Source: an uncultured bacterium (GTDB lineage: Bacteria; Desulfobacterota_D; UBA1144; Nemesobacterales; UBA2774). Taken from it: a DNA stretch of 64,000 nt. The notes beneath the pieces are model-generated. The model worked only from the letters and a program-made list of their open reading frames with translations, searched no databases and was not told the DNA's origin. The stretch is from contig CAVPJU010000010.1 of assembly GCA_963705505.1 (NCBI GenBank), forward strand, positions 224,001 to 288,000, written 5' to 3'. Each line of letters begins with the position of its first letter. Position 1 is the first letter of the stretch. The position numbers and the translations under genes were made by a program. Positions 36,835 through 52,703 of this stretch are shown one piece after another.

Positions 36835-37580
36835 TCAGGCGGATTCGCCTCCGAGCCTTTCCCCGATTCTCCGGAGAAGGTCGAAGTCTAAGCCTTCATC
36901 GGCATCATTGCCATGAATAGTTATTGTATTCGAGTGGGTTATGTTAAATACTTGAGAGAATGCTTTAATAATGCTTCCTTCGACCTCAGACAAATCGACC
37001 TCTTCTTTTCGGGATAGCCACCTCTGAATCGAGGTCATTTTTACGTTTTCTATCCCGCAGGGCACTATCATATCGAAATACGAGAGGTCGGTATTCACAT
37101 TGAGCGCGAAACCGTGATACGTAACCCATCTCTTTACTCCAACGCCGATAGACGCGATCTTATGCCATTTTGCCCAGACGCCGGTAATGCCCTTAATCCT
37201 TCTGCCGCGGATACCGAAATCCTCAAGTGAAATAATAATCGTCTCCTCCAGATTGCGGAGGTACTTATGGATATCCCTCCCCATTTCGCTTAGAGTCCAT
37301 TATCGGATATCCGACGAGCTGACCGGGGCCGTGGTACGTAATATCGCCGCCCCTGCTTATCACCTCGAAATGAATGCCGGCTTTCGCAAGGTAGTTCCTG
37401 GCGGCAAGGAGGTTCCCCATATTGCCCCGCCGTCCGATCGTGAATGTAGGAGGGTGCTCAAGGAGTAAAAGTGTATCGCCGATCTCCCCGTTTCTCCTCA
37501 TTTCCAGGAGCTCAAGCTGGAGGTCGAGGGCTTTATCGGTAGGGGACAAGCCCGAGCTTATAGACATTGAAATCAGCCAT
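36835..37580 (-). CDS. lipB: Lipoyl(octanoyl) transferase LipB, broken by two +1 frameshifts (~37538 and ~37294)
   Basis: MADFNVYKLGLVPY/DKALDLQ...LEHPPTFTIG...RGGDITYHGPGQLVGYPIMD/LSEMGRD...KIASIG...HGFALNV...PCG. Confidence 0.9.
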
Positions 37581-37670
37581 GGCTTTATTATAGCCGGGAA
37601 TGGTGGGGTAAGGAATTTGCGGGCGGGTGGGGTTGAGATGACGAATAGCAGAAAGGACAAAAGAAAAAAC

Positions 37671-38014
37671 GAGATTGCCGCGCTCTGCTCGCAATGACAG
37701 AATAAGCAAAGGTACACCCCCATCCTGGCCTATTTTGGGTTGGCAGGCGACGAATCGGGATTCAATTAGCTTAAGTGTCTTTTAGGTAATGGCGTCCTAA
37801 ACCTCTTAATCATCGGTTTAGTTCCCCCTTAAAGGGGGAAGGAAATTAAAGGAAAGGAGGGAATTGAAAGACAAAGATAGATTTCTCATGTTCACTCGAA
37901 ATGACAGGGTGAGGATGAGATTGCCGCGCTGCTTCGCAGCTCGCAATGACAGAATAAGAAAGGTACACCCCCATCCTCACCTTCCCCCTTAATATGGGAG
38001 AAGGGAAATTAAAG
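37671..38014. repeat. Palindromic mini-element cluster 1: two copies of an A+B composite plus an AGATTTCTC..TCGAAATGAC element
   Basis: A = GAGATTGCCGCG..CTCGCAATGAC at 37671 and 37917; B = ACACCCCCATCCT..TTCCCCCTTAA..GGG..AAGG; the first B holds a 91-nt insert. Confidence 0.9.
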
Positions 38015-38036
38015 AAGAAATGACAATAGGAATGTA

Positions 38037-39470
38037 TTAGATATTCCTCGCTCTGCCGAGGGCGGCGAGGGCTGCTTCCATTACGGCCTCAGACAGGGTG
38101 GGGTGGGCGTGGGACGTAATCGCTATCTCTAGCGGAGTAGTTTCGAGCGTCCTGCCGACGGCTATCTCGGCTATGAGCTCGGTCGCCCCGTGGCCGATTA
38201 TGTGGGCGCCCAGAATCTCTCCCGTGGCCTTATCCGAAATAATCTTCACGAAACCTTCGGTCTCGCCCGTGCCTACGGCTTTCCCCGCGGCCCTGAACGG
38301 GAACTTCCCGACGCTGTAGTTGAACCCCTTTTCCTTGACCTGCTTTTCAGTCAGCCCTATCATCGATATCTCGGGCTGGCAGTAAACACAACCGGGTATG
38401 TTGTCGTAGTGGACCTTGCTCTTGAGTCCCGCCATCTTCTCGACGGCGGCGACGCCTTCTTCGGACGCCTTGTGAGCGAGGAGCGGAGGCCCTATGACGT
38501 CGCCTATCGCATAGACGTTATCGCAGGTCGTCATGTAAGAATCGTCCGTCTTTATGAATCCCCTCTCGTTAAGCTCTATTCGCAGGTCACTCAGCCCTAT
38601 ATCGCCCGACTTCTTGTAATAGCTCAAAGAAGTAGGCGCATCGTTCGCGACAGGACGTCTCCCGACAGCGACGAGGACCATCGAGGCGGTCACCGTAACC
38701 TCGCTCTTGTCGGCGAGCTTTTCGAGAATTACGTCCGCGTTCTTTTTCTTTTTCTTCACTTCTTTGAATTTCGTGGAAGTCAGGACCTCGATGCCGTTCT
38801 TTTTGAAATTCTTCTCAAGCTCTCTCGACACCTCTTCGTCAGCGCCCGGAATAAGGTGGTCCATCATCTCGACTATGGTCACTTTGCTTCCGAAGGAGTT
38901 ATACACGTAAGCGAATTCGGCCCCTATATACCCTCCTCCGATAACCACGACTGAATCGGGGACCTCTCTGTGAAAAATCGCTTCGTCGCTGGTCATTATC
39001 TGCTTACCGTCGATCTCAAGCCCCGGCAGTGTCATGGGGACAGACCCCGTGGCTATGAGAATCTTGTCGGTGTCGATCTCTATCTGACCGTTCTCCTGTA
39101 TGACGGCGACCTTATTTTTAGCAATTAGTCTGCCGACCCCTTTAAAGAGTGTGGACTTATTTTTCTTGAGCAGGAATTCAACGCCCTTCGTAAGTGTATT
39201 AGATGCGTTCCGGCTCTTGTCTATCACCTTGGAGAAGTCATAAGTAAGCCCTTTATGTTCTATGCCGAACTCCCCCGAATGCTTGAAGTATTGGTAGACT
39301 TCAGCGCATTTGAGTATCGATTTCGAGGGTATGCAGCCCCAGTTGAGGCAAACGCCTCCGGCCTTATCCCTCTCTATCACCGCAACGTTCATTCCGAGCT
39401 GCGCCGCGCGTATTGCGGCAATGTATCCCCCGGGCCCCGATCCTATCACTGTTAAGTCGAATTTTTCCAT
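38037..39470 (-). CDS. lpdA: Dihydrolipoyl dehydrogenase (copy 1)
   Basis: IGSGPGG, GGVCLNWGCIPSK, LAHKA and HAHPTLSE. Confidence 0.96.
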   Translation of the reverse strand: MEKFDLTVIGSGPGGYIAAIRAAQLGMNVAVIERDKAGGVCLNWGCIPSKSILKCAEVYQYFKHSGEFGIEHKGLTYDFSKVIDKSRNASNTLTKGVEFLLKKNKSTLFKGVGRLIAKNKVAVIQENGQIEIDTDKILIATGSVPMTLPGLEIDGKQIMTSDEAIFHREVPDSVVVIGGGYIGAEFAYVYNSFGSKVTIVEMMDHLIPGADEEVSRELEKNFKKNGIEVLTSTKFKEVKKKKKNADVILEKLADKSEVTVTASMVLVAVGRRPVANDAPTSLSYYKKSGDIGLSDLRIELNERGFIKTDDSYMTTCDNVYAIGDVIGPPLLAHKASEEGVAAVEKMAGLKSKVHYDNIPGCVYCQPEISMIGLTEKQVKEKGFNYSVGKFPFRAAGKAVGTGETEGFVKIISDKATGEILGAHIIGHGATELIAEIAVGRTLETTPLEIAITSHAHPTLSEAVMEAALAALGRARNI

Positions 39471-39528
39471 GGCAGGGACTATTATATATTCAATAGAAAG
39501 TGCGTCAATTGTTTTTTGGGGGGAAAAA

Positions 39529-40238
39529 GAGATTGCCGCGGTTCCTTCGGAACCTCGCAATGACAGATTAAAAAACAAACACGAGACCCTGAATAGATTT
39601 CAGGGTGACGGATTATGGATTCCCGATTTGTTAAAATTTGATTTAGCGGATTGCCAAAGTTAAATAGCAGAATGCTATATAAGCAAAGGCGTCCGGTTCT
39701 TTCTAATTTGGCTTCTACAACATCAGCACGGAGTGATATTCGCGTTCATGGATTCAACTATGAATGACCAATTCTTCACTTGTTCAGAATTGTTGCTCAG
39801 AACCGTTATTCGGGAATGACAAGAATTGATTTTTAAAGGTACACCCCCACCCAGACCCTCCCCCCTCAAGGGGGAGGGAAATAGAAAAAGACTCAGGACA
39901 TTATTGCATTTAGCGAATGGCGTCCGATTCCTTGCTTGCTCGGAATCGTCCCGTAAAACATTTTTATACGCATTAACAAGCGATTTTCTTAACGCCAATT
40001 CTGTGAATGTCGGGGAAAAGGAAAAGCGTTGAGGAACGATAGAATTATTAAGGTACACCCCCACCCAGACCCTCCCCCTCAAGGGGGAGGGGATTATAAA
40101 CAAGAGCAATAGAAAAGAAGAGATCCTGAATATTCTGCGTTAACAAACGAACTACAGTGGAACAGCCGCATTGTTGCATTTAGCCAATGGACGCGCATTC
40201 CTCTGTGCATCGCTTCAGTTCCCCCTCAAGGGGGAGGG
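39529..40238. repeat. Palindromic mini-element cluster 2 between divergent lpdA and aceE
   Basis: A at 39529-39564; D GAGACCCTGAA..TTCAGGGTGAC at 39583-39609; split E GGATTCCCGA..TCGGGAATGAC at 39617-39820; B at ~39841-39878, ~40055-40091 and partial 40219-40238. Confidence 0.9.
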
Positions 40239-40346
40239 AAATGGAAAAGTGCCGCGGGTGGAAGCTGTTAATGATGGTTGACTTAAGCAACGCGTGTGCA
40301 TTATTATTTTTATTATAGATTTTCTTCCGCCCGACAGGTCACACGA

Positions 40347-43031
40347 ATGGATGAAGGCACGGATAAAAAGAAAGGGACAGTCAGCCCCGAAGAAGCAGAA
40401 AACAGGGAATGGATCGAATCCCTCGACTACGTCCTTAAGACGAGCGGCCCTGAACGTGTAAGCAAGCTCATCAAAATCCTTCAGATACACGCCCAGAAAA
40501 AGGGCGTCAGGCTCCATTTCACAGCCAACACGCCCTACATCAACACTATCCCCGCCGAGATGCAGCCCCCGTATCCCGGCGACCAGGCTATAGAGTGGAA
40601 CATACGGAGCCTCATCCGATGGAACGCTATGGCCATGGTCGTGCGGGCGAACAGGCTCGAGGAGGGGATAGGGGGTCACATATCAACTTTTGCTTCCGCG
40701 GCGGCACTTTACGAAGTAGCTTTCAACCATTTTCTCAGGGCTAAAAACGGGAACTTTGAGGGGGATATAGTCTATTTCCAGGGTCACGGCGCCCCCGGTG
40801 TCTATTCGAGGGCGTTTCTCGAAGGGCGGCTCACAATAGAAAACCTGCAAAACTTCAGGCGGGAGCTCCAGCCGGAGGGAGGGCTTCCGTCCTACCCCCA
40901 CCCGTGGCTGATGCCGGGATTCTGGCAATACCCCACCGTTTCCATGGGGCTTAGCCCCATAATGGCAATCTACCAGGCCCGTTTCAGCCGCTATCTGGAA
41001 GACCGGGGATTCAAGGAACCCACCGATTCCAAGGTCTGGGCGTTCCTCGGTGACGGCGAATGTGACGAGCCCGAAGCCCTCGGCGCGATCACGCTCGCAT
41101 CGAGAGAAAAGCTCGACAACCTCATTTTCGTCGTCAACTGCAATCTCCAGCGCCTGGACGGCCCGGTGAGGGGCAACGGCAAGATAATACAGGAGCTCGA
41201 GGCTATATTCAGGGGCGCGGGCTGGAATGTCATTAAAGTCATCTGGGGCAGCAACTGGGACCCCTTGCTCGCAAAGGACAAGGACGGGATACTCGTCAAG
41301 AGGATGGGCGAGGTCGTCGACGGCGAGTTCCAGAAATACACGGTCGAATCCGGCGATTATATACGCAAGCACTTTTTCGGGACGGACCCGAGACTCCTCG
41401 AGATGGTAAAAGACCTCACGGACGAGCAATTGGAGAAACTGAGGCGGGGAGGGCACGACCCGGAGAAGATCTATCCCGCATACAAAGCGGCAGTGGAGAA
41501 TAGAGGCTCTCCTACCGTAATACTCGCCAAGACGGTAAAGGGTTACGGTCTCGGCGAAGCGGGAGAGGGCAGGAACATCACTCACCAGCAGAAGAAGCTC
41601 AACGAGGACGAGCTCAAAGAATTCAGGACGAGGTTCAGCATCCCTATATCCGACGAGGAAGTCGTGCGGGCGCCCTTTTACAAACCGCCCGACGACAGCC
41701 CGGAAATAAAATATCTGCAGGAGCGGAGGCGCGAGCTGGGCGGCTATCTGCCGAAGCGGGAAGTCAACTGCGAGCCGCTCGAACCCCCTTCGGAATCGAT
41801 ATTCGAGGAGTTCTACAAAGGCTCGCGAGGAAGACCCGCGGCGACCACCATGGCGATCGTGCGCATGCTCTCGAAGATGCTTAAAGATGAGAACATCGGG
41901 AAATTCATCGTCCCTATAGTGCCCGACGAAGCCCGCACGTTCGGAATGGAGTCCCTGTTCAGACAGGTGGGCATATACTCCCACGCCGGTCAGCTCTACG
42001 AGCCTGTGGACGCGGAGACGCTGTTATTCTACAAAGAGGCCAAAGACGGACAGATACTCGAAGAGGGGATAACCGAGGCAGGCTCCATGTCCTCCTTCAT
42101 AGCGGCCGGCACGGCGTACGCCACGCACGGGATCAACATGATCCCGTTCTTCATTTTTTACTCGATGTTCGGCTTCCAGAGGATAGGTGACCTCGTCTGG
42201 GCCGCGGGCGATTCGAGGGCAAAGGGTTTCATGGTCGGAGGCACCGCGGGGAGGACGACCCTTGCGGGCGAGGGCCTCCAGCACCAGGACGGCCACAGCC
42301 ACCTCCTCGCATACCCGGTCCCCAATCTCAAGTCATACGACCCGGCATACGCATACGAGATAGCCGTCATCCTTCAGGAAGGCATAAGGCGTATGTATAT
42401 AAACCAGGAGAACATTTTCTACTACCTCACGGTCATGAACGAGCCTTACGAGCAGCCGCCCATGCCCGAGGGCTCAAGAGAGGGGATACTGAGGGGGATG
42501 TATAAATTCAGGGCGTCCGGGCTCAGGGACGCCGAACTCCACGCGCAGCTCTTCGGAAGCGGCACTATTCTGAATGAAGTGCTGAAGGCTCAGGATGTGC
42601 TCGGGGAAAAATACGGAGTCGCGGCGGATGTGTGGAGCGTGACGAGCTACAAGGAGCTCTACAGGGACGGCTGTGAGGATGAGCGGTGGAACATGCTCCA
42701 TCCTTCCGAGATAAGGAGAGTCCCGTATATAACACAGTGCATCAAGGACGCCCCGGGCGTTTTCGTAGCGGCGTCCGATTACGTGATGGCCCTTCCCGAT
42801 TCGATCTCGCAGTGGCTCCCGCGCCCCCTCGTTTCGCTCGGCACCGACGGCTTCGGCAGGAGCGGAAGCCGGAAGGCGCTGAGAGACTTTTTCGAAGTGG
42901 ACTGGAGATACATTACGCTCGCAGTGCTCGCTTCATTGACGTGGGAAAACAAGATCGGTACGGATACCGTCGAGAAAGCCATAAAGGACCTCGACATCAA
43001 TCCGGGAAAAGCCAACCCTCTGATATCTTAG
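40347..43031 (+). CDS. aceE: Pyruvate dehydrogenase E1, homodimeric type
   Basis: TPYINTIP, GGHIST, PTVSMGL, LGDGECDE (TPP motif), NCNLQRLDGPVRGN and GEGLQHQDGHS. Confidence 0.97.
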   Translation: MDEGTDKKKGTVSPEEAENREWIESLDYVLKTSGPERVSKLIKILQIHAQKKGVRLHFTANTPYINTIPAEMQPPYPGDQAIEWNIRSLIRWNAMAMVVRANRLEEGIGGHISTFASAAALYEVAFNHFLRAKNGNFEGDIVYFQGHGAPGVYSRAFLEGRLTIENLQNFRRELQPEGGLPSYPHPWLMPGFWQYPTVSMGLSPIMAIYQARFSRYLEDRGFKEPTDSKVWAFLGDGECDEPEALGAITLASREKLDNLIFVVNCNLQRLDGPVRGNGKIIQELEAIFRGAGWNVIKVIWGSNWDPLLAKDKDGILVKRMGEVVDGEFQKYTVESGDYIRKHFFGTDPRLLEMVKDLTDEQLEKLRRGGHDPEKIYPAYKAAVENRGSPTVILAKTVKGYGLGEAGEGRNITHQQKKLNEDELKEFRTRFSIPISDEEVVRAPFYKPPDDSPEIKYLQERRRELGGYLPKREVNCEPLEPPSESIFEEFYKGSRGRPAATTMAIVRMLSKMLKDENIGKFIVPIVPDEARTFGMESLFRQVGIYSHAGQLYEPVDAETLLFYKEAKDGQILEEGITEAGSMSSFIAAGTAYATHGINMIPFFIFYSMFGFQRIGDLVWAAGDSRAKGFMVGGTAGRTTLAGEGLQHQDGHSHLLAYPVPNLKSYDPAYAYEIAVILQEGIRRMYINQENIFYYLTVMNEPYEQPPMPEGSREGILRGMYKFRASGLRDAELHAQLFGSGTILNEVLKAQDVLGEKYGVAADVWSVTSYKELYRDGCEDERWNMLHPSEIRRVPYITQCIKDAPGVFVAASDYVMALPDSISQWLPRPLVSLGTDGFGRSGSRKALRDFFEVDWRYITLAVLASLTWENKIGTDTVEKAIKDLDINPGKANPLIS

Positions 43032-43111
43032 CCCGGACCGATACAAATGAGCTGAGAATCCGGGCCGTAATATGTTAAAACAATAGGGATAGAAATAAGA
43101 GGCGGGACGAA

Positions 43112-44504
43112 ATGACAATCGAATTCAAGCTGCCGGACCTCGGGGAAGATATAGAAACAGGGGACGTGGTCAGAGTATATGTATCCCCGGGGGATAGGGT
43201 TGCACAAGAGCAGGCTCTGATGGAGCTCGAGACCGATAAGGCGGCGCTCGAAATACCTTCGCCCGCAGCAGGCGTGATCAAAGAAGTCCACGTAAAGGAA
43301 GGGGATACGATAAAGATAGGACAGCTCCTCGTCACCATAGACGACGGCACGGGCGCGGAGCCTGTAAAAGCAAAGGTTAAAGAAGCAGTCCGAGGAAAAA
43401 GAGGGCAGCGCTCAGAAAAAAGAAACGGAACCCGCGGCAAAACCGGAAGAAAAAAAGGCCAGGGGCACCGTCAGGGTAGAGCCCGAAGAGAGGCCGGTTG
43501 TTAAAGCGGCGAAAGAGCAAAAGAAAGAACCCGCAGCAGAAGCAGGTCTGATTCCAGAAGGTGAAAAGGGGCCAGCCCCACTAAAAATCGTACCGGCTTC
43601 GCCGACTGTGAGAAGGCGCGCTCGCGAGCTTGGGATCGATATAACGAAGGTCAAAGGCTCGGGACCCGGAGGACGTATTACGGAAGAGGACCTCAAGGCT
43701 TCCGGGAAGAAGGCAGCGCCGGAAAAAGAGAAGCCGAAGCCGGAACCTGAGCCTATCGAAGAAAAAGCTGCCCCGGCAGGAACCGCCCCTTCCGCCGACA
43801 AGTGGGGCGAGACAGAGCGCGTCGGGATGTCCAGGGTAAGGAGGCTCACCGCGGAGCGCTTGAGCGAGTCCTGGAAAGCCCCTCACGTCACTCAGCACGA
43901 TAAGGCGGATATTACGGAAGTCGATAAGCTGAGGAAGCAGTACGGCAAGGAGGTGGAGAGCCTGGGGGGGAAGCTGACGATGACCTCTATAATATTAAAG
44001 GCCGTTTCATCGGCGCTCAAGTTATTCCCGCAGTTTAACGCAAGTATCGATATGGAAAACGGCGAGATCATATACAGGAAATACTACAACATCGGAATCG
44101 CAGTCGATACCGACAGGGGGCTGCTCGTACCGGTGATAAAGGACGCGGACAAGAAGAATATCGAAGAGCTGTCCGTCGACCTGAGCGTGCTGTCTGAGAA
44201 AGCGAGGACGAAGAAAATATCCGTCGAGGAGCTACAGGGGGGGACGTTCACGATAAGCAATCTCGGCGGGATCGGAGGGACATACTTCACGCCCGTGATA
44301 AATTCCCCGGAGGTCGCGATACTGGGCATATCCCGCGCGTCGGTCGAGGCCGTCTATATAGACGGACAATTCCAGCCGCGGCTAATGCTCCCGCTCTCCC
44401 TTTCATACGACCACCGTCTCATAGACGGAGCTGACGCGGTGAGGTTCCTCAGATGGGTCGTCGAGGCGCTCGAAGAGCCCTTCAAGCTTTCGCTCGAAGG
44501 GTGA
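43112..44504 (+). CDS. aceF: Dihydrolipoamide acetyltransferase E2, broken by a +1 frameshift in the linker (~43368-43390)
   Basis: Lipoyl domain LETDKA, E3-binding ASPTVRRRARELGIDI and catalytic SYDHRLIDGA; the two ORFs are offset by one base. Confidence 0.93.
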
Positions 44505-44561
44505 CGCGCGCAATCAAATAAAACGAGCCGGATATCCGGGCTCGCTTAAGAACTTAAGAAC

Positions 44562-45983
44562 ATGGCGGAAGAAAAAACAACACAGGTAGCCGTTATAGGC
44601 GCGGGTCCCGGAGGTTATCCGGCTGCGTTTCTCGCGGCTGATCTCGGACTCGAAGTTACGCTGATAGACCCGGAAAAGAACCCCGGCGGCGTGTGCCTCT
44701 ACAGGGGATGCATACCGTCGAAGGCCCTTCTACACGCGGCTCAAGTTATAACCGAGGCCCGGCATTCTTCGCGAATGGGCATCGAGTTCGAGAAGCCCGG
44801 AATCGATATCGACAGGCTGAGAGAGTGGAAAAACGAAGTGGTGGAGAAACTGGTCGGTGGTCTCGGTCAGCTGACGAAACAGAGGAAAATAACACATATA
44901 CAGGGAAGGGCCAGGTTCCTCGATCGGCAGAGCCTCGAAATAAAAACGAACGGCGGAACTAGAGAGGTATTAAAATTTGAAAACGCCGTGATAGCGACGG
45001 GCTCGCGTCCTGCATTAATCCCCGGCCTCGATACACCTCCCGGTATCCTCGATTCCACCTCCGCGCTCGACCTCCCCGGAATACCGAAAACTATGCTCAT
45101 AGTCGGGGGAGGGTATATAGGGCTTGAGCTGGGGACGGTCTACGCAGCCCTGGGGACGGAGGTATCGGTCGTAGAGATGACTTCGGGCCTGATGCCGGGT
45201 GTGGACAGGGACCTCGTCAGGGTGCTTCAAAAAAGGTCGGAGGGAATATACAAGGCCATCATGCTCGATACCAGGGTCATCGGGTTGAAGGAAATCGGGA
45301 ACGGGACGATAGTCGAGCTCGAGAGGGGAGGGGAGGAAAAGCTGGAGATGGTATTCGACAAGGTGCTCGTCTCAGTGGGCAGGAAGCCCAACAGCGAGGG
45401 CCTCGGCCTCGAGAATACGAATGTCGAAACAGACTCAAAAGGCTTTATAAAAGTGAATGAGGAAAGGCGGACCACGGAGCCGAATATATTCGCTATCGGC
45501 GACGTAGCGGGCGAGCCGATGCTCGCGCACAAGGCCACGCACGAGGGGCGGGTCGTCGCGGAAATACTCGCCGGGAAAAAGTCGGCGTTTATGCCGAACG
45601 CTATTCCCGCAGTGGTGTTTACAGACCCCGAGATAGCATGGTGCGGACTCACGGAAACGGAAGCGAAGGAAAAAAGGATACCGATAACGGTCGCAAGGTT
45701 CCCCTGGGGCGCGTCCGGAAGGGCCGCAACACTCGACAGACAGGACGGCGCGACGAAGCTCATAGCAGACCCTGAAACGGGACGCGTGCTCGGCGTAGGC
45801 ATAGTCGGACCGGGCGCGGGAGAGCTTATCGCGGAAGGGGTGCTCGCGGTCGAAATGGGAGCGCTCGCCTCCGACATTGCGCTCAGCATACATCCGCATC
45901 CTACCCTGTCGGAGACCCTGATGGAGGCCGCGGAAGCATTCGACGGTCAAAGCACGCACATTTACAGACCCGGAAAAAAATAG
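44562..45983 (+). CDS. lpdA: Dihydrolipoyl dehydrogenase (copy 2, PDH operon)
   Basis: IGAGPGG, GGVCLYRGCIPSK, MLAHKA and HPHPTLSE. Confidence 0.96.
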   Translation: MAEEKTTQVAVIGAGPGGYPAAFLAADLGLEVTLIDPEKNPGGVCLYRGCIPSKALLHAAQVITEARHSSRMGIEFEKPGIDIDRLREWKNEVVEKLVGGLGQLTKQRKITHIQGRARFLDRQSLEIKTNGGTREVLKFENAVIATGSRPALIPGLDTPPGILDSTSALDLPGIPKTMLIVGGGYIGLELGTVYAALGTEVSVVEMTSGLMPGVDRDLVRVLQKRSEGIYKAIMLDTRVIGLKEIGNGTIVELERGGEEKLEMVFDKVLVSVGRKPNSEGLGLENTNVETDSKGFIKVNEERRTTEPNIFAIGDVAGEPMLAHKATHEGRVVAEILAGKKSAFMPNAIPAVVFTDPEIAWCGLTETEAKEKRIPITVARFPWGASGRAATLDRQDGATKLIADPETGRVLGVGIVGPGAGELIAEGVLAVEMGALASDIALSIHPHPTLSETLMEAAEAFDGQSTHIYRPGKK

Positions 45984-46008
45984 CGGAGCCAATGGAGATG
46001 AGACGGTA

Positions 46009-47511
46009 ATGAACGCGGAAGCCCAGGAAGATAAAAAGCCCGAGACTGAATTAGCCCGTCTCAGGGTTATCACCGAGAAATCCTATTTAAAAGCCGCGAT
46101 TGATCTGGTCACCGACATCGCCGGGGCAAGCGGGATCGGCGTTAAAGACGCTCAGAACCTCGACAAGGTGCTCGCCGATATATTCGATAATATAGTGAAA
46201 TACGGTTTTGAAGGCGACAGGCATAAACCAATAGACGTCATCGTATCGAGGCGTCTCCATTCCCTCGTCGTCGCTGTGGAAGACAAGGGCCTCCCCTTCG
46301 ATTACGACAAGCTCGAGTGCGGCGAGGAAAAGAGGTTTCAATCCTACATCTCGAAGCACTATGCAGACGAGGTCCATTTTTCAACCCTTGGCGCCGGCGG
46401 GAACAGGACCGAAGTCGTCAAGAATCTCCCCGCATCCGACATCCGCAATGAAATGGACATATCGGAGCACCACGAACACCTAAAAGCCGCTGAGGCTTCT
46501 CCCGATGAAGAGATCGCGATAGGGATGCTCGACACCGGGAAGATCCACGAGCTCGTGCGCCTCGTTTACAAGTGCTACGGCTATACGTATGCGAACGAAT
46601 TCATGTATTACCCGGAGCAGATCGAAGCCAGGCTCAGTTCCGGGACCATGCTTTCGGCCGCGGCTTATAACAGCAGGAATGAAATCATCGGGCACGTAGG
46701 GTTCATATTCAGCAAGCCGGGCGCGAGGGTCGCGGAGTCGGGTGAAGCCATAGTCGACCCGCGCTACAGAGGCAGGGGCATATTCCAGAAAATGAAAAAT
46801 TATCTGATGGACTACGTGGCTTCGATGAAAGTGGTCGGCATTTACGGGGAAGCCGTCACCGTCCACCCGTACAGTCAGAAGGGGAGCATCGAGTTGGGCG
46901 GCAGGGAGACGGGGTTCCTGCTCGGATACAGCCCCGGCACGGTCTCTTTCCATAACATTTCAGAGAACGAAAGACCGAGGCGTCAGTCAGTCGCCATGAT
47001 GTTCACGCCCGTCACGAAAAGCGGATCCGAGACCTCCTACGTGCCTCACGTTTACAGGGAGCTGATCGGGGGTATATACGAGAGAACGGGCTTCATGAGG
47101 AATCTGTCTCCGGAGGATGAGGGACCGGGATTCAGAGGAAGGCAGAACGGCCGGACGACCGTATCGATAAGGCACGACCACAACCAGGCGCTCATTCAGA
47201 TCGACCGGGTCGGCAGGATGACGTTAAAGGAAATACGCTTTCAGTGGAAGCACCTCGCGCTCGAGCGTTTCGATTGTATATACGTCGATCTGCCTCTCAG
47301 GCAAAAGGGGGCGGGCTACGTCGCCTCCGAGCTGCGCAAGTCCGGGTTTTTCTTCGGGTGCGTTATCCCCGAATACAGGGACGGGGACATACTGAGGCTC
47401 CAGTACCTGAACAACGTCGAGATATCGAGGGACGATATAAAGACCGCGTCTGACTTCGGGGAGCGTCTCCTCGGCACTATCTTCGAGGACATGTCCGAGG
47501 TCAGCTCGTAG
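46009..47511 (+). CDS. RsbW-like HATPase domain fused to a GNAT-like acetyltransferase domain
   Basis: FDNIVKYG, VEDKGLPFD and GNR in the N-terminal part; VDPRYRGRGIF (GNAT acetyl-CoA motif A) centrally. Confidence 0.75.
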   Translation: MNAEAQEDKKPETELARLRVITEKSYLKAAIDLVTDIAGASGIGVKDAQNLDKVLADIFDNIVKYGFEGDRHKPIDVIVSRRLHSLVVAVEDKGLPFDYDKLECGEEKRFQSYISKHYADEVHFSTLGAGGNRTEVVKNLPASDIRNEMDISEHHEHLKAAEASPDEEIAIGMLDTGKIHELVRLVYKCYGYTYANEFMYYPEQIEARLSSGTMLSAAAYNSRNEIIGHVGFIFSKPGARVAESGEAIVDPRYRGRGIFQKMKNYLMDYVASMKVVGIYGEAVTVHPYSQKGSIELGGRETGFLLGYSPGTVSFHNISENERPRRQSVAMMFTPVTKSGSETSYVPHVYRELIGGIYERTGFMRNLSPEDEGPGFRGRQNGRTTVSIRHDHNQALIQIDRVGRMTLKEIRFQWKHLALERFDCIYVDLPLRQKGAGYVASELRKSGFFFGCVIPEYRDGDILRLQYLNNVEISRDDIKTASDFGERLLGTIFEDMSEVSS

Positions 47512-47541
47512 AATAATCCGGCAGCGGATATGCGGAGTGCT

Positions 47542-48255
47542 TCACGACTTCCCGTAAACGGGTATCGCCGCGCCGCTTACCGCGCGGGCGTCGTCCGAGC
47601 ATAGGAACGCGATGACCTTGCCTACGTCCCGGGGATCCACCCATTTTGTAAAGTCAGCGTCCGGCATGCTCTTTCTGTTGGCCGGTGTGTCCATAGTGCC
47701 GGGGATTATCGCGTTGACGTTGATATTGTGCTCTCGGAGTTCCTCGGCCATCGACTGTGTGAGGTTCAGCACTCCGGCCTTTGAAGCGCCGTACGCCGAA
47801 AGGTTAGGTGAGCCCTTGAGCGCCGGGCGCGAGGCTATGTTTACGATACTGCCGCGGCCCTGCTTCGTCATGTGAGGAACGACACCCTTCGAGCAGAGGA
47901 AAGCGGATCTGAGGTTCATGTTCATCATCCTGTCCCACGTCTCCTCGTCCGTGTCCGCGACAGGGGACTGCGCAAACCCGCCGACTACGTTTACGAGAAT
48001 ATCTATACGGGAGAACTTCTCTATAGTTTTTGTCACCACGTTCGAGACATTGGACGCCTTCGTCACATCCGCCTTGCCGAATGCTATCCTGGACTTATAC
48101 TCTTCACGCAGACTCACGCACCCTTTTAACTCTTCCTCATCGATGTAGGTGCTCAACACACACGCACCTTGTCCGAGGAACACATTTACCACGGCTTTTC
48201 CGAGCCCTCCGGTTCCGCCTGTTATGATCGCGACCTTGTCTTTTAACTGTTTCAT
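47542..48255 (-). CDS. Short-chain dehydrogenase/reductase
   Basis: TGGTGGLG and YGASK. Confidence 0.92.
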   Translation of the reverse strand: MKQLKDKVAIITGGTGGLGKAVVNVFLGQGACVLSTYIDEEELKGCVSLREEYKSRIAFGKADVTKASNVSNVVTKTIEKFSRIDILVNVVGGFAQSPVADTDEETWDRMMNMNLRSAFLCSKGVVPHMTKQGRGSIVNIASRPALKGSPNLSAYGASKAGVLNLTQSMAEELREHNINVNAIIPGTMDTPANRKSMPDADFTKWVDPRDVGKVIAFLCSDDARAVSGAAIPVYGKS

Positions 48256-48332
48256 TCCCGCCCCCTGGTTTTATGCCGATAATTATCCTTCCACAAGCCT
48301 TCCAAATCAATATATGCTTATGAAAGACGGTC

Positions 48333-48362
48333 TTGACATTCTCACCGGACTGAAAATACAAT
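48333..48362 (+). promoter_or_regulatory. Putative sigma-70 promoter
   Basis: TTGACA-N18-TACAAT upstream of the 48396 ORF. Confidence 0.55.
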
Positions 48363-48395
48363 AGAGTTGCATTACCCCCCGCGCGAGAGAGGTAT

Positions 48396-48734
48396 ATGGA
48401 GTTATTCATTTCGATGAAGGCGGAAACCATCAACAAGGGCATTTATTTTCAGGAGAGCAATATCATGCAAATGCCCACCGCCCAATCCAAGGGTTATTTC
48501 ATAGCCGAATTCAGGGAAGGGAGCGATGAGAAACTCAGGCTTCTGAAAAAATACGTGGATATTCTCAGGAGTAAGCTCGAAGGTGATGATGAATTTCATA
48601 TAGAAGACACCCATATAGGATTCAAGCTCCTGAAAAAGGTCGAAGAGGATAAGGAATACATGGAGGTCTGGGCGGAATGGGTAATATTTTCGCGGAACCT
48701 CCTGAGGGATCTGGAGGAAATAGTCGATATGTAG
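48396..48734 (+). CDS. Hypothetical protein
   Basis: GAGGT RBS, upstream promoter, fills the intergenic gap. Confidence 0.65.
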   Translation: MELFISMKAETINKGIYFQESNIMQMPTAQSKGYFIAEFREGSDEKLRLLKKYVDILRSKLEGDDEFHIEDTHIGFKLLKKVEEDKEYMEVWAEWVIFSRNLLRDLEEIVDM

Positions 48735-48874
48735 GGCCCCGGCTTGCATTTCCCCGCATCTAAGCTAATATTTTTCTTCAACTCGAAGTTGAAAATTATA
48801 TTCTATCCATCTCTATCGATTGAATATTATCCCGAATAGTATAGCTTTTGCCCGTTAAGGAGAAATGGCACCCG

Positions 48875-51721
48875 ATGTCGGAGGCGAAAAAAAGAAATTA
48901 TAAAGACACGCTCAACCTTCCGCGGACGGATTTCCCGATGAAGGCGAACCTCAATCAGAAAGAGCCCGAGTACCAGAAAAGGTGGAAAAAGATAAGGCTC
49001 TTCGAGAGGATGAGGGAGAAATCAAAAGGACAGGAAAAATTCATCTTCCACGACGGCCCGCCTTATGCGAACGGTCCCATACACCTGGGCCATCTGCTAA
49101 ATAAGGTGCTCAAGGACATAGTGGTGAGGTCGAAAACGATGCTGGGCTACGATGTGGATTTCGTCCCCGGCTGGGACTGCCACGGGCTGCCTATCGAGCA
49201 CAAGGTGTTAAAGGAGCTGGGGGAGGAAGCTAAAGAGCTCTCCAAAATAAAGATAAGATACAAGTGTCAGGCATACGCCGAAAAGTACGTGAAGCTTCAG
49301 GCGGGCCAGATGCAGAGCCTGGGCACGATAGGGGATTACGAACACCCGTACCTCACCATGACACCCGGCTACGAAGCCGGAGTGCTCGAGGTATTTTCGA
49401 AGCTCCTCGAAAGGGGGCTCGTTTACAGGGACTTAAAACCGGTCCACTGGTCGATCGAGAACCGGACCGCGCTTGCGGACGCAGAGCTCGAATATTATGA
49501 CAGGAACGACAGGAGCATTTACGTCCTCTTCGAAATAGAAAACCCGGAAGGCCTTCCCGCAAACCTCAATCTCCCCACGGACGTGTCTCCATCGCTCATG
49601 ATATGGACGACGACGCCCTGGACGCTTCCGGCGAACCTCGCTGTCGCCGTCTCGCCCGAAGGGAACTACAGCCTCTACCGTGTCACGAAAGACGGAAAGG
49701 AATATTATGTGGTCCTCGTGGAGAACCTTGCCGAGACCGTGTTCAAAAAATCCGGGACGGCGGAATACGAGAAACTGGGCACATGCACCGGACAGGAGCT
49801 GCACGATATGCCGGTGACATACAGGCACCCGTTCGCGGGACGCATGGGAAAGGTGGTTCTGGCGGATTACGTCACGTTCGATGAAGGCACGGGTCTTGTA
49901 CATACAGCGCCCGGCCACGGCATAGAGGACTATCAGACGGGGCTCAGGGAAGGGCTCGATATCTACTGCCCGGTGCTCGAGGACGGCACATTCGACGATA
50001 CCGTTCCCGAATGGTTACGCGGGCAGGACGTATGGGAGGCGAACGGGATAATAACCGACCGGCTCAGGGAATCGGGGAACCTATATTACGAAGAAGAATA
50101 CCTTCACAGCTACCCGCATGACTGGAGGAGCAAATCCCCCACGATATTCAGGGCTACCGAACAGTGGTTCATAAGCGTAGATAAGCGCATAGAGGAGTTC
50201 GGAGGGACTCTCAGGGAGCTTGCTCTCGAGTACTCGCGGAGCGGCATAGAATTCTACCCCGAGTGGGGCAGAAACAGGCTCAGAGGCATGCTCGAAGCGA
50301 GGCCGGACTGGTGCATAAGCCGCCAGAGAGCATGGGGGCTTCCCATACCTGCGTTCATGAGCGAGAGGGGAGAGATATTACTGACTCCGGATTCTGTGAA
50401 TGCAGTCATAGAAAAAATAAGACAAAAAGGGGCCAATTACTGGTTTCAGGCAACGGAAGAGGAAATACTCGAAGGCTACGACCCGGGGCAGGACAAGAAT
50501 GCGCCCGCATGGATAAAGAAAAAAGGGGCGCTCACGAAATTAAGGAAGGGCATGGACATATTCGACGTGTGGTTCGAGTCCGGCTCTTCGTGGCACTCGG
50601 TCCTGGAGCTGAGGAACATAGGGTACCCCGCAGACCTCTACCTCGAAGGGTCTGACCAGCACAGGGGCTGGTTTCAGCTCTCGCTCCTTCCCGCGCTCGG
50701 CGTGACAGGCAGGCCGCCTTTCAAAGCTCTCCTCACGCACGGCTTCATGGTCGACGCACACGGGAGGAAGATGAGCAAGTCCGGAGGGAACGCCCTCGAA
50801 GTGGACGAGCTCTTGAAGCAGCACGGGGCCGACATATGCAGGTGGTGGGTAAGCTCCCTCAAATATACGAACGACATAAAGGTCGATTGGGAGTTCTTCA
50901 AAGCAGCGGGGGAGGAATACAGGAAAGTCAGAAATACTATAAGGTTCCTGCTCGGGAATATATACGACTTCGATGCGGAAAAGGACGGCGTCAAATTTTC
51001 GGATGAGGACAGATACACGATCGACGGCTGGGCCATGGGAGAGCTCTCAAAATTCGTCCGGGAGACGAAGGAAGCCTACGACGGATTCCAGTACAAGAGG
51101 GCAAGCGAGCTGATATACGGTTTCTGCTACGATACTCTCAGCGCCGTTTATCTCGCAGCCACGAAGGACAGGCTCTATTGCGAACGGAGCGGCAGCAGGA
51201 AGAGGAGAAGGTGTCAGACCGCCATGTACCGTATTGCGGACGCGCTTATTAAACTGCTCGCGCCCATTCTCGCTCATACCTCCGACGAGGCATACCTTCA
51301 TCTGAGAGGAGAATCCGCCGACTCCGACGAGAGCGTGCATCTCATGGGCATGCCCGATGAAATAGAGACGGATACCGACCCGAACTGGGAAATGGTAATG
51401 GATATAAGGAGCAAGGTGTCAAAAGCGCTCGAAGAGGCGAAGGAGTCCCAGGGCGTATCCAACCCCCTCGATACGGGAGTGGAGGTTAGCCTCGAGTCCG
51501 AGTCTTACAGTAAGCTAAAACCATTCGAGCCCGAGCTTGCCGACCTCTCGGGTGTGAGCAGGTTTTCGCTAACGGAGGGAGAGGATTTTAAAATCACTAT
51601 CAATGACCTCACGGACGAGCCCAGGTGTGAGCGTTCCTGGAAGAGGGACGGCACCGTGAGAGAGCGCTCGGACGGGGGATTCCTTTCGGATAGGGATGCG
51701 GAGGCGCTGGGGATTGATTAG
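48875..51721 (+). CDS. ileS: Isoleucine--tRNA ligase (type 1)
   Basis: HDGPPYANG..HLGH, GWDCHGLPIE, WTTTPWTLP, DWCISRQR, EGSDQHRGWF and KMSKS. Confidence 0.97.
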   Translation: MSEAKKRNYKDTLNLPRTDFPMKANLNQKEPEYQKRWKKIRLFERMREKSKGQEKFIFHDGPPYANGPIHLGHLLNKVLKDIVVRSKTMLGYDVDFVPGWDCHGLPIEHKVLKELGEEAKELSKIKIRYKCQAYAEKYVKLQAGQMQSLGTIGDYEHPYLTMTPGYEAGVLEVFSKLLERGLVYRDLKPVHWSIENRTALADAELEYYDRNDRSIYVLFEIENPEGLPANLNLPTDVSPSLMIWTTTPWTLPANLAVAVSPEGNYSLYRVTKDGKEYYVVLVENLAETVFKKSGTAEYEKLGTCTGQELHDMPVTYRHPFAGRMGKVVLADYVTFDEGTGLVHTAPGHGIEDYQTGLREGLDIYCPVLEDGTFDDTVPEWLRGQDVWEANGIITDRLRESGNLYYEEEYLHSYPHDWRSKSPTIFRATEQWFISVDKRIEEFGGTLRELALEYSRSGIEFYPEWGRNRLRGMLEARPDWCISRQRAWGLPIPAFMSERGEILLTPDSVNAVIEKIRQKGANYWFQATEEEILEGYDPGQDKNAPAWIKKKGALTKLRKGMDIFDVWFESGSSWHSVLELRNIGYPADLYLEGSDQHRGWFQLSLLPALGVTGRPPFKALLTHGFMVDAHGRKMSKSGGNALEVDELLKQHGADICRWWVSSLKYTNDIKVDWEFFKAAGEEYRKVRNTIRFLLGNIYDFDAEKDGVKFSDEDRYTIDGWAMGELSKFVRETKEAYDGFQYKRASELIYGFCYDTLSAVYLAATKDRLYCERSGSRKRRRCQTAMYRIADALIKLLAPILAHTSDEAYLHLRGESADSDESVHLMGMPDEIETDTDPNWEMVMDIRSKVSKALEEAKESQGVSNPLDTGVEVSLESESYSKLKPFEPELADLSGVSRFSLTEGEDFKITINDLTDEPRCERSWKRDGTVRERSDGGFLSDRDAEALGID

Positions 51722-51743
51722 GCGGTTTCAGACTAAAAAATAA

Positions 51744-51946
51744 ATCCACCCTAGCCCTCCTTTACAAAAGGAGGGAATTATATAACAAAAGATGAGATCC
51801 TGAATCAAGTTCAGGATGACTGATTTTAATAAAAGGTGACACCCCCATCCTCACCTTCCCCCCTCAAGGGGGAAGGTAATAAATACTGCGCCCTTCGATC
51901 CTTCGACTTCGCTCAGGACAGGCTCACTGCTCGAGGATGAACGGGT
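51744..51946. repeat. Palindromic mini-element cluster 3 between convergent ileS and HIT genes
   Basis: F CCCTCCTTT-ACA-AAAGGAGGG at 51755-51775; D at 51794-51820; B at 51839-51876; CCCTTCGA..GATGAACGGG at 51891-51946. Confidence 0.9.
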
Positions 51947-51981
51947 AATAAAATTACAGTATTCGAGACTGACACATTATA

Positions 51982-52323
51982 CTATCCGGGGGGCCAGTTC
52001 ATCTGCCTGCCGCCGAGGATATGCAGATGGACGTGGTAAACCTCCTGGCCGCCCTCCTTGTTCGTATTGATGACGATGCGGTAGCCGGAATCGGATACAC
52101 CGTGGTTTCTTGCGATTTCGGAAGCCTTGATGAGCAGATGCCCGAGGAGCGATTTATCCTTCTCAGTAACTTCCGCGAGTGAAGGTATCTCTCTTTTCGG
52201 CACGAGCAGAATATGAACGGGCGCTTTCGGGTCTATATCCTTAAAAGCGATACACTCATCGTCCTCATATACGATGGCAGCCGGTATCTTTCTATCGATT
52301 ATCCTCGTGAATATGGAACTCAT
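51982..52323 (-). CDS. Histidine triad (HIT/Hint) nucleotide-binding protein
   Basis: IFTRII, AFKDIDPKAPVH and QEVYHVHLHILGG...WPPG. Confidence 0.95.
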   Translation of the reverse strand: MSSIFTRIIDRKIPAAIVYEDDECIAFKDIDPKAPVHILLVPKREIPSLAEVTEKDKSLLGHLLIKASEIARNHGVSDSGYRIVINTNKEGGQEVYHVHLHILGGRQMNWPPG

Positions 52324-52430
52324 AATCGTCTCCTGCTCCAGTGATATAAACTGAACCCGATAGTTATTAACCAATATAACACAGTTGCCCCGGCGCTCAA
52401 TCGGGAATTACGTATTTTATTTTTATGGTA

Positions 52431-52649
52431 CCCCCTCACCCTAACCCACCTTTACGAAAGGAGGGAATTAAAAGGAAAGGACGAGATTGCCGCGCCGCGA
52501 TTTGTTTTTGGTTCCTTCATCCCGCGGTAAAGGTACTTGAATGTATTCTGTGAAGGGCGTCCGGTTGCGCGCTTGCTTACAACCGTTGCGGCTCGCAATG
52601 ACCGGTCTATCACCCCCATCCTTCACCTTCCCCCCTCGAGGGGGAAGGA
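52431..52649. repeat. Palindromic mini-element cluster 4
   Basis: F-type at 52431-52469; A at 52483-52602 with an 89-nt loop insert; B at ~52611-52649. Confidence 0.9.
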
Positions 52650-52703
52650 AGTAAAAAGGCTCGGACGAACGGGCCAATAAGATTAAATCCCCAGCAGTCC
52701 TAT

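Follow-up and report, generated by a model that had tools for sequence, protein, structure and literature searches.

Five related intergenic stretches of a bacterial genome, lying inside or between the hairpins of other repeats, raise the question of what kind of DNA takes up residence within a palindrome. The stretches, I1 to I5, are found in a window of 64,000 nucleotides (nt), positions 224001-288000 of contig C10 in the assembly of an uncultured bacterium (G000; 2.88 Mb in 10 contigs, 93.6% complete), one protein of which has its nearest named relatives in Candidatus Dadabacteria. The original prediction had described them as a diverged family of ~90-nt cassettes written into hairpins by an enzyme encoded elsewhere. 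We confirm that they belong to a real, non-coding repeat family, whose ~90-nt unit we call U, and that one family of Dadabacteria harbours nearly all copies.

An iterative nhmmer search seeded with I1-I5 and run to convergence gave 79 matches in G000, distributed over contigs C5 (74 kb; 35 matches), C9 (11), C10 (16) and the rest (17). Within the 64 kb of the window, matches were confined to I1-I5. All five stretches were recovered as one family by this search and by a covariance model (R1) built on 29 full-length G000 units, which bears out their proposed relatedness; the word that had been noted as common to all five is repeat family D5. The covariance model detects U in other genomes with E-values as low as 1e-20, and the family signal is far beyond chance. 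With this model, units were found in all nine other genomes of the genus (at least 21 to at least 103 matches among those listed per genome; 128 in one congener searched on its own). Elsewhere in the family, U occurs in 4/4, 1/1, 3/3 and 2/5 genomes of genera g4, g5, g6 and g2, respectively, and outside it in one genome of another family and in 0/16 further genomes of the order. A sample of the phylum yielded U in 30 of 120 genomes, belonging to families f1 (26/32), f3 (1/1) and f7 (2/15, weak single matches), with none in f8 (0/37), f9 (0/19) or four other families (0/15).

The window contains no Rfam match at gathering level, only sub-threshold, chance-level matches being seen at 37300-40400, and 60 kb of contig C5 gave none at E ≤ 1; a tRNA scan of the window found none. 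Searches of the literature returned nothing on repetitive extragenic palindromic sequences in Dadabacteria, and a broad search on nested hairpin repeats returned nothing describing U-like cassettes. The family is thus apparently undescribed in Rfam and in the literature searched, as the first reading of the window had suspected. Its kind, nested intergenic mosaic repeats, is already a known class, to which U adds.

A full unit reads, from 5′ to 3′, (T)ATTTTGG, about 55 nt with the semi-conserved words TTAGG.AAC and GAAGTTAA, then AATGGCGTCC, stem, loop, stem and GTT. In the 3′ part, GGCGTCC precedes a 7-bp stem, free in sequence with its pairing kept, around a conserved loop close to TTGCTTGCTC (consensus near TT-G-CTTGCTC). 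Compensatory changes were observed at six of the seven stem pairs among 29 G000 units. Across 93 distinct units from several genomes, 94.5% of stem cells are paired, compared with 73.3% in shuffles, and cells changed on both sides number 138 against 40.9 expected, a value reached in 0 of 500 shuffles. A 3′ hairpin with a free stem and a conserved loop is the pattern expected of a protein recognising a folded single strand.

The first ~60 nt at the 5′ end are weakly structured at most, and no structure can be demonstrated for them: no covarying column pairs were detected, and 77 sequences showed no excess folding energy over shuffled ones (mean z: plus strand, -0.13; minus strand, -0.62). A long 5′ hairpin suggested by individual folds was rejected on these two grounds. 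The ends, TTTTGG.. and ..GTT, form no terminal inverted repeats, in agreement with the original prediction, and no enzyme gene lies inside the unit, which supports the description of U as a non-coding, non-autonomous occupant of hairpins. Of the 79 G000 matches, 25 are 5′-truncated and 7 are 3′-truncated, which speaks against recent activity in this genome.

We read the flanks of 35 full-length G000 units and of further copies in genomes G004, G007, G014, G016, G023 and G026. Units sit in B elements (a C-rich box followed by a hairpin), in hairpin loops, at palindrome centres and in the loop of another unit, up to three deep. They lie between the arms of at least six unrelated host types, namely A-, D- and E-type hairpins, B elements, a palindromic mini-transposon and the loop of another unit. 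When 161 units with an intact 3′ end were sorted by simple patterns, 62 fell in B elements, 22 were followed by a co-oriented small-hairpin right arm and 17 lay in another unit's loop; 2 inverted cases are doubtful, and the 58 left as "other" are, by eye, mostly mini-transposon centres, B variants, tRNA-gene ends and gene ends. The polarity of U relative to its host is therefore fixed, with 22 co-oriented cases against the 2 doubtful ones. Since the words of the B right arm also match ribosome-binding sites (340 matches), the usable cases for that arm are the 14 units with such a word at most 40 nt downstream.

In the window, the sequence bears out the contexts that had been described for I1, I2, I4 and I5: a B element interrupted by I1, the ATTCCCGA/TCGGGAAT stem with I2 inside it, I4 flanked on one side by a GAGATCCTGAA arm and on the other by a B right half reaching ~40243, and the extended stem of the GAGATTGCC...GCAATGAC hairpin occupied by I5. 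The internal layout of two stretches had to be revised. I2, taken for about two tandem units, is an outer unit carrying an inner unit in the loop of its 3′ hairpin, and I3, which had been read as the 3′ half of one unit joined to the 5′ half of a second, consists of the last two-thirds of one unit and, behind it, the mini-transposon's right arm; the 5′ end of that unit was lost beside a B element at 39835-39885. I1 and I4, which had been aligned end to end, are both plus-strand units; I4 is degenerate, its hairpin being broken.

Nesting accordingly replaces the head-to-tail concatemers that had been envisaged, true tandem arrays being found only after tRNA genes. The deepest case, at C5:24121-24370, has three levels, with each inner unit lodged behind the 5′ arm and ahead of the GCT(T)GCTC stretch of the loop around it, and with the outer arms still complementary. 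Copies in hairpin loops include I2, I5, C2:93131-93240 and C5:51052, as well as copies in G014 and G023. The composite of outer and inner unit seen in I2 recurs on C5, on C9 and twice in G004. Hairpins of another kind also nest: in G003 (L157:500-560 and 885-945), D-type hairpins beside a nuclease gene hold a second D-type hairpin in their own loop, and hairpin-in-hairpin nesting is thus not limited to U.

The palindromic mini-transposon provides filled and empty versions of one host. It has inverted ends of ~17 nt (GACAGCACAGAATTGGC .. GCCAATTCTGTGAATGTC) and was found at 39953-40011 of the window, at C5:11596-11830 and in ~25 other places. The short form (~115 nt; 7 copies aligned) lacks U, and the long form (~200 nt; 8 aligned) has the unit exactly at the palindrome centre (..CCACCCCA, unit, CCCCTAAAA..); four more copies carry additional nested units, the very long form reaching ~370 nt. 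I3 corresponds to a 5′-truncated copy of the long form. Right ends also occur on their own, with a GCGGGC..GCCCGC hairpin before them.

Comparison between species showed that U turns over. The spacer upstream of lpdA measures 455 nt in the window and from 87 to 589 nt across six congeners, with differing sets of repeats; a B element in it is empty in G004 and filled in G007. Similarly, the unit after tRNA-Arg(TCT) has an intact loop of 11 nt in G000 and a nested unit in G007, the stems differing by one compensatory pair. Units in G009, G003 and G004 match the one at C10:753027 with identities of 90.8%, 91.7% and 84.4%, respectively; they lie at non-orthologous sites whose flanks have nothing else in common with a 6.5-kb query. 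Further signs of movement are identical B-plus-U blocks at two G004 loci and the occurrence of the I2-type composite in an E hairpin in G000 and in D hairpins in G004. The coordinates of the units and of neighbouring repeats are collected in Table 1.

Table 1. Copies of U and associated repeats; positions are those of the window unless a contig or locus is named.
Feature	Position	Strand	Basis
U copy I1, full length, 3′ stem TAAACC/GGTTTA	37730..37825	+	Covariance hit 70.8 bits, model positions 1-94; nhmmer 37736-37822 (C10:261736-261822)
B element around I1: left C-rich box GGTACACCCCCATCC, right hairpin CCCCCTTAAAGGGGG + AAGG	37709..37845	+	Sequence reading; repeat families D1, D3, D4
A-type hairpin GAGATTGCCGCGC..CTCGCAATGACAG, empty	37671..37700	+	Sequence reading
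F-type hairpin AGATTTCTC..TCGAAATGACAGG, empty	37876..37908	+	Sequence reading
A-type hairpin with extended stem, empty	37917..37952	+	Sequence reading; repeat families D6, D14
A-type hairpin, empty	39529..39566	+	Sequence reading; repeat family D14
D-type hairpin GAGACCCTGAA..TTCAGGGTGAC, empty	39583..39609	+	Sequence reading
E-type hairpin GGATTCCCGA..TCGGGAATGAC, I2 in loop	39617..39820	+	Sequence reading; ATTCCCG hairpin, 185-nt loop with two U matches
I2 outer unit, 3′ hairpin GGTTCT/AGAACC split by inner unit	39627..39809	+	nhmmer 39645-39701, model positions 7-68; AGAACC + GTT after inner unit
I2 inner unit, in loop of outer unit's hairpin	39703..39796	+	Covariance hit 69.0 bits, full length; nhmmer 39709-39794
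I3, 3′ two-thirds of a unit	39898..39952	+	Covariance hit 50.6 bits, model positions 40-94 only; nhmmer 39888-39949; BLAST to >15 copies on C5 and C9
Right arm of palindromic mini-transposon with inverted ends (..GCCAATTCTGTGAATGTC)	39953..40011	+	Alignment of 7 short and 8 long copies; terminal-word census
D-type hairpin left arm GAGATCCTGAA, directly 5′ of I4	40120..40130	+	Sequence reading; repeat family D18
U copy I4, degenerate, hairpin no longer pairs	40130..40222	+	Covariance hit 41.3 bits; nhmmer 40137-40219; pair table
A-type hairpin GAGATTGCCGCGCCGC..GCGGCTCGCAATGAC, I5 in loop	52483..52602	+	Sequence reading
U copy I5, 3′ stem GGTTGC/ACAACC	52497..52589	+	Covariance hit 64.1 bits; nhmmer 52516-52587
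Units at tRNA-gene ends	C8:189208-189460 (L034:208-460); C10:547140-547304 minus (L036); C8:144394-144530; G007 L096:1006-1300, L106:8174-8440		

The B elements have two further properties. The hairpin's left arm and the C-rich box are direct repeats of each other, which allows two alternative hairpins, and B elements, when read on the minus strand, present four G-runs (e.g., GGGGGAGGGTCTGGGTGGGGG) that could form a G-quadruplex (window 37961-38005, 39838-39882, 40052-40095, 51835-51880 and 52610-52655).

According to crude longest-open-reading-frame gene calls, all U matches are intergenic, and the four possible arrangements of the neighbouring genes occur 23, 21, 21 and 11 times out of 76. 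On C5, all 35 units share one direction, and nearly all other hairpin repeats of that contig have it too; elsewhere in G000, the orientation of U follows neither GC skew nor third-position (GC3) skew. An orientation that follows replication was not supported for U: C10, C8 and C2 have negative skew, yet 17 units are plus and 7 minus. C5 and C9 (47 kb) form a repeat-rich island of accessory genes with 46 of the 79 G000 units, and C5 has an unusually high third-position GC skew (+0.124); since their end genes are 97.7% identical, C5 and C9 probably lie side by side or represent variants of one another. Contig C5 was rejected as an integron array or plasmid, its genes, on both strands, being ordinary accessory ones by Pfam. 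In some cases, a unit directly adjoins the stop codon of an opposite-strand gene for an IPTL-CTERM-type exported protein (C9:25530-25615, C9:38887-38971, C9:27990-28031; G007 L094, L098, L106). There are at least seven such gene ends, and in at least one the frame seems to continue into the U hairpin, giving a basic protein tail.

Short units lacking the first ~18 letters directly follow tRNA-Arg(CCT), tRNA-Arg(TCT) and tRNA-Glu, in the orientation of the tRNA, 3 of the 44 G000 tRNA genes being affected. At tRNA-Arg(CCT) of G000, three copies of CTCTCGGGGACGCA surround two different units, and at tRNA-Arg(TCT), two copies of CCCTCCGGGCGCGCA bound a short unit; these direct repeats are perfect, 12-15 nt long and equal to the tRNA 3′ end. 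The absence of target duplication noted for I1-I5 is correct for those five and does not extend to these copies. After tRNA-Glu, G000 has one truncated unit without a repeat, and in G007 a 9-nt repeat is present there three times. Each tRNA-end unit begins with a sequence partly complementary to the tRNA end, and the arrangement looks like repeated site-specific integration or a tRNA-like fold. Next to one of these sites, a truncated phage-type integrase gene (145-amino-acid [aa] open frame; C10:547318-547719 minus, L011/L036) ends 13 nt before tRNA-Arg(TCT).

The host hairpins of the window are themselves informative. Types A, D, E and F read GAGAT-stem-loop-stem-ATGACAG, and on the other strand GTCAT-stem..stem-ATC. 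In the main-text parts of Chenal et al. 2025 (PMC11893778), SsnA of Neisseria meningitidis is described as a 94-aa single-domain GIY-YIG nuclease that cuts single-stranded DNA beside the NTS hairpin repeat (consensus CGTCATTCCCGCGMAVGCGGGAATCYRG), its gene often being flanked by that repeat; loop identity is dispensable for cleavage, and loop extensions are tolerated in vitro. G000 has three small GIY-YIG genes (PF01541 above cut-off). That on C9 (99 aa; C9:25890-26186 minus, L006:5890-6186) has F-type hairpins on both sides, and that on C8 (97 aa; C8:36504-36794 minus, L154:504-794) has two E-type hairpins, downstream only, one of which reads GTCATTCCCGCGAAAGCGGGAATC and fits the printed NTS consensus across those 24 letters. 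The third adjoins the transfer-messenger RNA gene, is without such flanks and aligns poorly. Among paralogues in congeners, that of G003 has a D-type pair on both sides, that of G007 four F-type hairpins, likewise on both sides, and that of G004 A-type hairpins on both sides, each with U in its loop. Each of the types A, D, E and F thus flanks its own nuclease paralogue in G000 or a congener. These hairpins are built like the targets of Ssn-type nucleases; they belong to the Ssn/NTS system or closely resemble it, and may be divergent SRM members.

The five GIY-YIG proteins are single-domain, 96-106 aa long, and 45-76% identical to the first in the alignment. They fall in a very large family of ~96 aa (7986 of 8000 scored candidates of similar length match); NCBIfam returned only weak, below-cut-off matches to a group I intron endonuclease model, and the Protein Data Bank holds no solved Ssn, the nearest entries being UPF0213 proteins. 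In family f1, a small GIY-YIG match was found in 17/20 U-bearing versus 0/5 U-lacking genomes, related genomes not being independent samples. A looser hairpin definition (GTC plus a 7-nt arm, loop of 3-31 nt, perfect partner) gave 68 cases in G000 and 4 in the reversed sequence. The suggestion that a GIY-YIG gene might be flanked by the same palindromes was borne out for the host hairpins and not for U itself: no small GIY-YIG gene was seen flanked by bare U hairpins, the one U-flanked case having its units inside A-type hairpins, and the 3′ hairpin of U has no GTCWY foot, its stem being preceded by GGCGTCC and followed by GTT.

G000 contains no classical mobilising enzyme, and in relatives such enzymes are sporadic and do not track U. 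An HUH or reverse transcriptase mobiliser, for which a search had been proposed, was not found: the genome has no Y1, Y2 or reverse transcriptase. Elements of the REP/REPIN type with RAYT were rejected as candidates, Y1 having 0 hits in G000 and occurring in 3/9 congeners and many U-free genomes, with no unit near the Y1 genes fetched. Reverse transcriptase (PF00078) and IS110/IS1111 (PF01548) each have 0 hits in G000 and hits in 3/9 congeners; IS91 Y2 was not found in G000, and PF04986 has hits in 0/9 congeners. TnpB was not found in G000 either, whose tyrosine recombinases are Xer-like, phage-type or fragments, and no gene there has more than three paralogues at ≥60% identity. A miniature inverted-repeat transposable element of DDE type was rejected because U has no inverted ends and G000 no multi-copy gene; inverted ends do belong to the separate mini-transposon around I3. 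An integron attC site was rejected as well, the best TIGR02249 match scoring 90.7 bits against a cut-off of 265 and the genes of C5 lying on both strands with no array layout.

What, then, is U? The reading that we favour, and to which we give an even chance, is that of a lineage-specific, non-coding and non-autonomous unit carried as a passenger by other palindromic repeats at their permissive centres. U would spread, or have spread, as selfish DNA, gaining access to the loops of hairpins or the centres of palindromes when the DNA is in single-stranded form and the host hairpin extruded. The initiating cut might come from an Ssn-type nuclease or from some other enzyme that does not look like a transposase, repair would then copy from a filled repeat, and copies might persist in loops because the host hairpin would still work with extra DNA there. 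We infer active writing of units into hairpins, in keeping with the original prediction. A more specific version strikes us as improbable, namely that U is a gene-less, structure-targeting mobile cassette that integrates into single-stranded hairpin loops (Ssn targets, tRNA-gene ends and its own hairpin) and is mobilised in trans by the small GIY-YIG single-stranded DNA nuclease through nicking and copying from a filled repeat. If true, this would amount to "homing" of a non-coding cassette and would explain the build-up of Neisseria-type intergenic mosaics.

Several observations weigh against the passenger reading and its proposed enzyme. GIY-YIG nucleases cut DNA and do not join it, and a further activity would thus be needed. 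Families of the order that lack U have small GIY-YIG genes too, two U-bearing genomes (G014 and G026) show no small GIY-YIG match, and G000 shows no enrichment of the degenerate SRM pattern as published (19 occurrences versus 11-22, mean 17.6, in five first-order Markov genomes). As to placement, the 62 units in B elements, about 4 in 10 of those sorted, lie between the C-rich box and the hairpin instead of occupying an apex. Flank complementarity, tested generically, was indistinguishable from that at random places (1/35 units below the 5th percentile), which led us to drop "always at the hairpin apex" as a rule. Where a hairpin right arm follows the unit (24 cases), a matching upstream 7-mer (≤1 mismatch) is present in only 11, a count lowered by the imperfect pairing of A-type arms. 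The junctions of filled sites are not clean, 2-4 host letters being missing or changed. The median pairwise identity is 52% (406 pairs, 29 full G000 units), and the units of G000 are old; most of them may be fossils. Finally, no insertion event was directly seen, and short Logan contigs of public runs gave no clean empty site; in one low-depth contig of public run X4, 39702-39794 is replaced by 6 letters, which is a lead only.

An explanation that dispenses with dedicated mobility is that recombination, gene conversion and break repair at hairpins shuffle modules at conserved words. It would account for two units on C9 whose 5′ 62 nt are identical and whose hairpins differ, with the break at GGCGTCC, and for the I2-type composite, which occupies an E hairpin in G000 and D hairpins in G004, keeping its 3′ module while the 5′ part and the host arms differ. 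I4 and C10:50191, each with the left flank of one host type and the right flank of another, fit it too, as does the lack of a multi-copy gene or known transposase in G000. However, the host arms, at 7-10 nt, offer little length for homologous exchange, units lie between arms sharing no similarity, and copies 84-92% identical at unrelated loci of four species need transfer of the unit alone. We hold that shuffling by itself is an unlikely origin of the pattern.

Alternatively, nothing was inserted, and U is the original core of several mini-elements, of which the empty hairpins, B elements and short mini-transposons would be internal-deletion derivatives with solo ends. One junction is common to all 7 short mini-transposon copies, as from a single deletion that then spread; identical B-plus-U blocks stand at two different loci of G004, as if copied as one; and filled and empty sites differ by 2-4 extra letters rather than forming simple pairs with and without an insert. 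Against this, units of this one family are enclosed by the arms of at least six unrelated host types, units nested in another unit's loop are not explicable by deletion, and the loop of the tRNA-Arg(TCT) unit is intact in G000 and occupied in G007. These points make a deletion origin distinctly unlikely.

That U has been retained for a function of its own, as a structured non-coding RNA gene or a cis-regulatory RNA element, is suggested by the strong covariation of the 3′ hairpin with its conserved loop, by the units placed directly after three tRNA genes and by the 84-92% identity of one subfamily across species. The covariation, however, is restricted to the 7-bp helix, the 5′ 60 nt being devoid of it and of excess folding energy; wobble pairs (10 G-U versus 18 A-C) give no clear RNA strand signal; and neighbouring genes show no related orientation. 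With no Rfam match, and with a copy number (51 to at least 128) and truncated copies that fit repeat DNA, we regard this possibility as very doubtful. A base-calling or consensus artefact at strong hairpins, raised in the original prediction on account of indel errors in the contig, is refuted to the point of being negligible by the presence of U in 29 phylum assemblies besides G000, by the systematic compensatory changes and by a 285-letter contig from an unrelated public run (X3) that spans 39615-39898, the whole of I2, with 6 differing letters and 3 gaps.

If U is only decaying repeat DNA, its description is a useful annotation for Dadabacteria genomes and little more. Three of its features should nevertheless interest those who study mobile DNA and the Ssn nucleases. 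How intergenic mosaics (BIME, NIME) are assembled has been an open question for decades, and U, with its empty and filled hosts, its nesting and its short direct repeats at tRNA ends, offers a concrete system in which to address it. The four Ssn-type stem families, each beside its own nuclease paralogue, look like a natural set of specificities, and lodgers in the loops of genomic hairpins would be the natural counterpart of the in vitro tolerance of SsnA for extra loop DNA, as far as this is described in the main-text parts of the report on that enzyme.

ERIC/IRU repeats carry ~70-nt internal inserts at fixed sites. Like the repeats described here, they include a long imperfect palindrome with two versions, one short and one enlarged by an additional block at a constant internal position, and they differ in lineage and sequence; to our knowledge, the ERIC insert neither nests nor occupies several unrelated hosts, as U does. 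The intergenic mosaic elements of Neisseria are 50-150-nt repeat units bounded by dRS3 hairpins and located near variable genes. They are likewise intergenic units combined with small ATTCCC..GGGAAT hairpins, dRS3 itself being ATTCCC[N8]GGGAAT in the main-text parts of Chenal et al. 2025 (PMC11893778). Unlike them, U lies in the loop between the arms of one hairpin, not between two complete hairpins, and nests in itself.

Hairpin repeats (REP) are preferred landing sites of mobile DNA, and Tobes and Pareja 2006 (PMC1525189) name, in part of their text, five insertion sequence (IS) families that use them in this way. The repeats of G000 resemble REP and BIME in being abundant intergenic hairpins built into mosaics; in contrast with the gene-bearing IS that target REP, as that part of the text presents them, the lodger here is a 90-nt non-coding unit with neither inverted ends nor target duplication. 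Palindrome-associated elements derived from IS200/IS605 have no inverted ends, make no duplication and are recognised by the shape of a hairpin near their end. U is similar in lacking inverted ends and duplication, in its hairpin near one end and in its fixed polarity relative to its surroundings. It differs in having a hairpin at the 3′ end only and no fixed target word that we could see, and TnpA and TnpB were not found; a non-autonomous element of IS200/IS605 type was rejected given that only the 3′ hairpin is supported and that G000 has no PF01797 or PF07282 hit. The same comparison with IS200/IS605-derived elements, and with other single-stranded DNA transposons, is drawn in the main-text parts of Chenal et al. 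2025 (PMC11893778).

The Ssn/NTS system, as the main-text parts of that paper present it, is the closest match for the host hairpins, and for these only: both comprise hairpins with fixed feet (GTCAT, stem, loop, stem and ATC on the other strand here), single-domain GIY-YIG genes flanked by their own hairpin type, and tens of copies per genome, often clustered. The differences are that four stem families, each with its own paralogue, exist here, that the published SRM pattern is not enriched, and that cassettes occupy the loops of genomic hairpins, none being found in the same parts of the paper.

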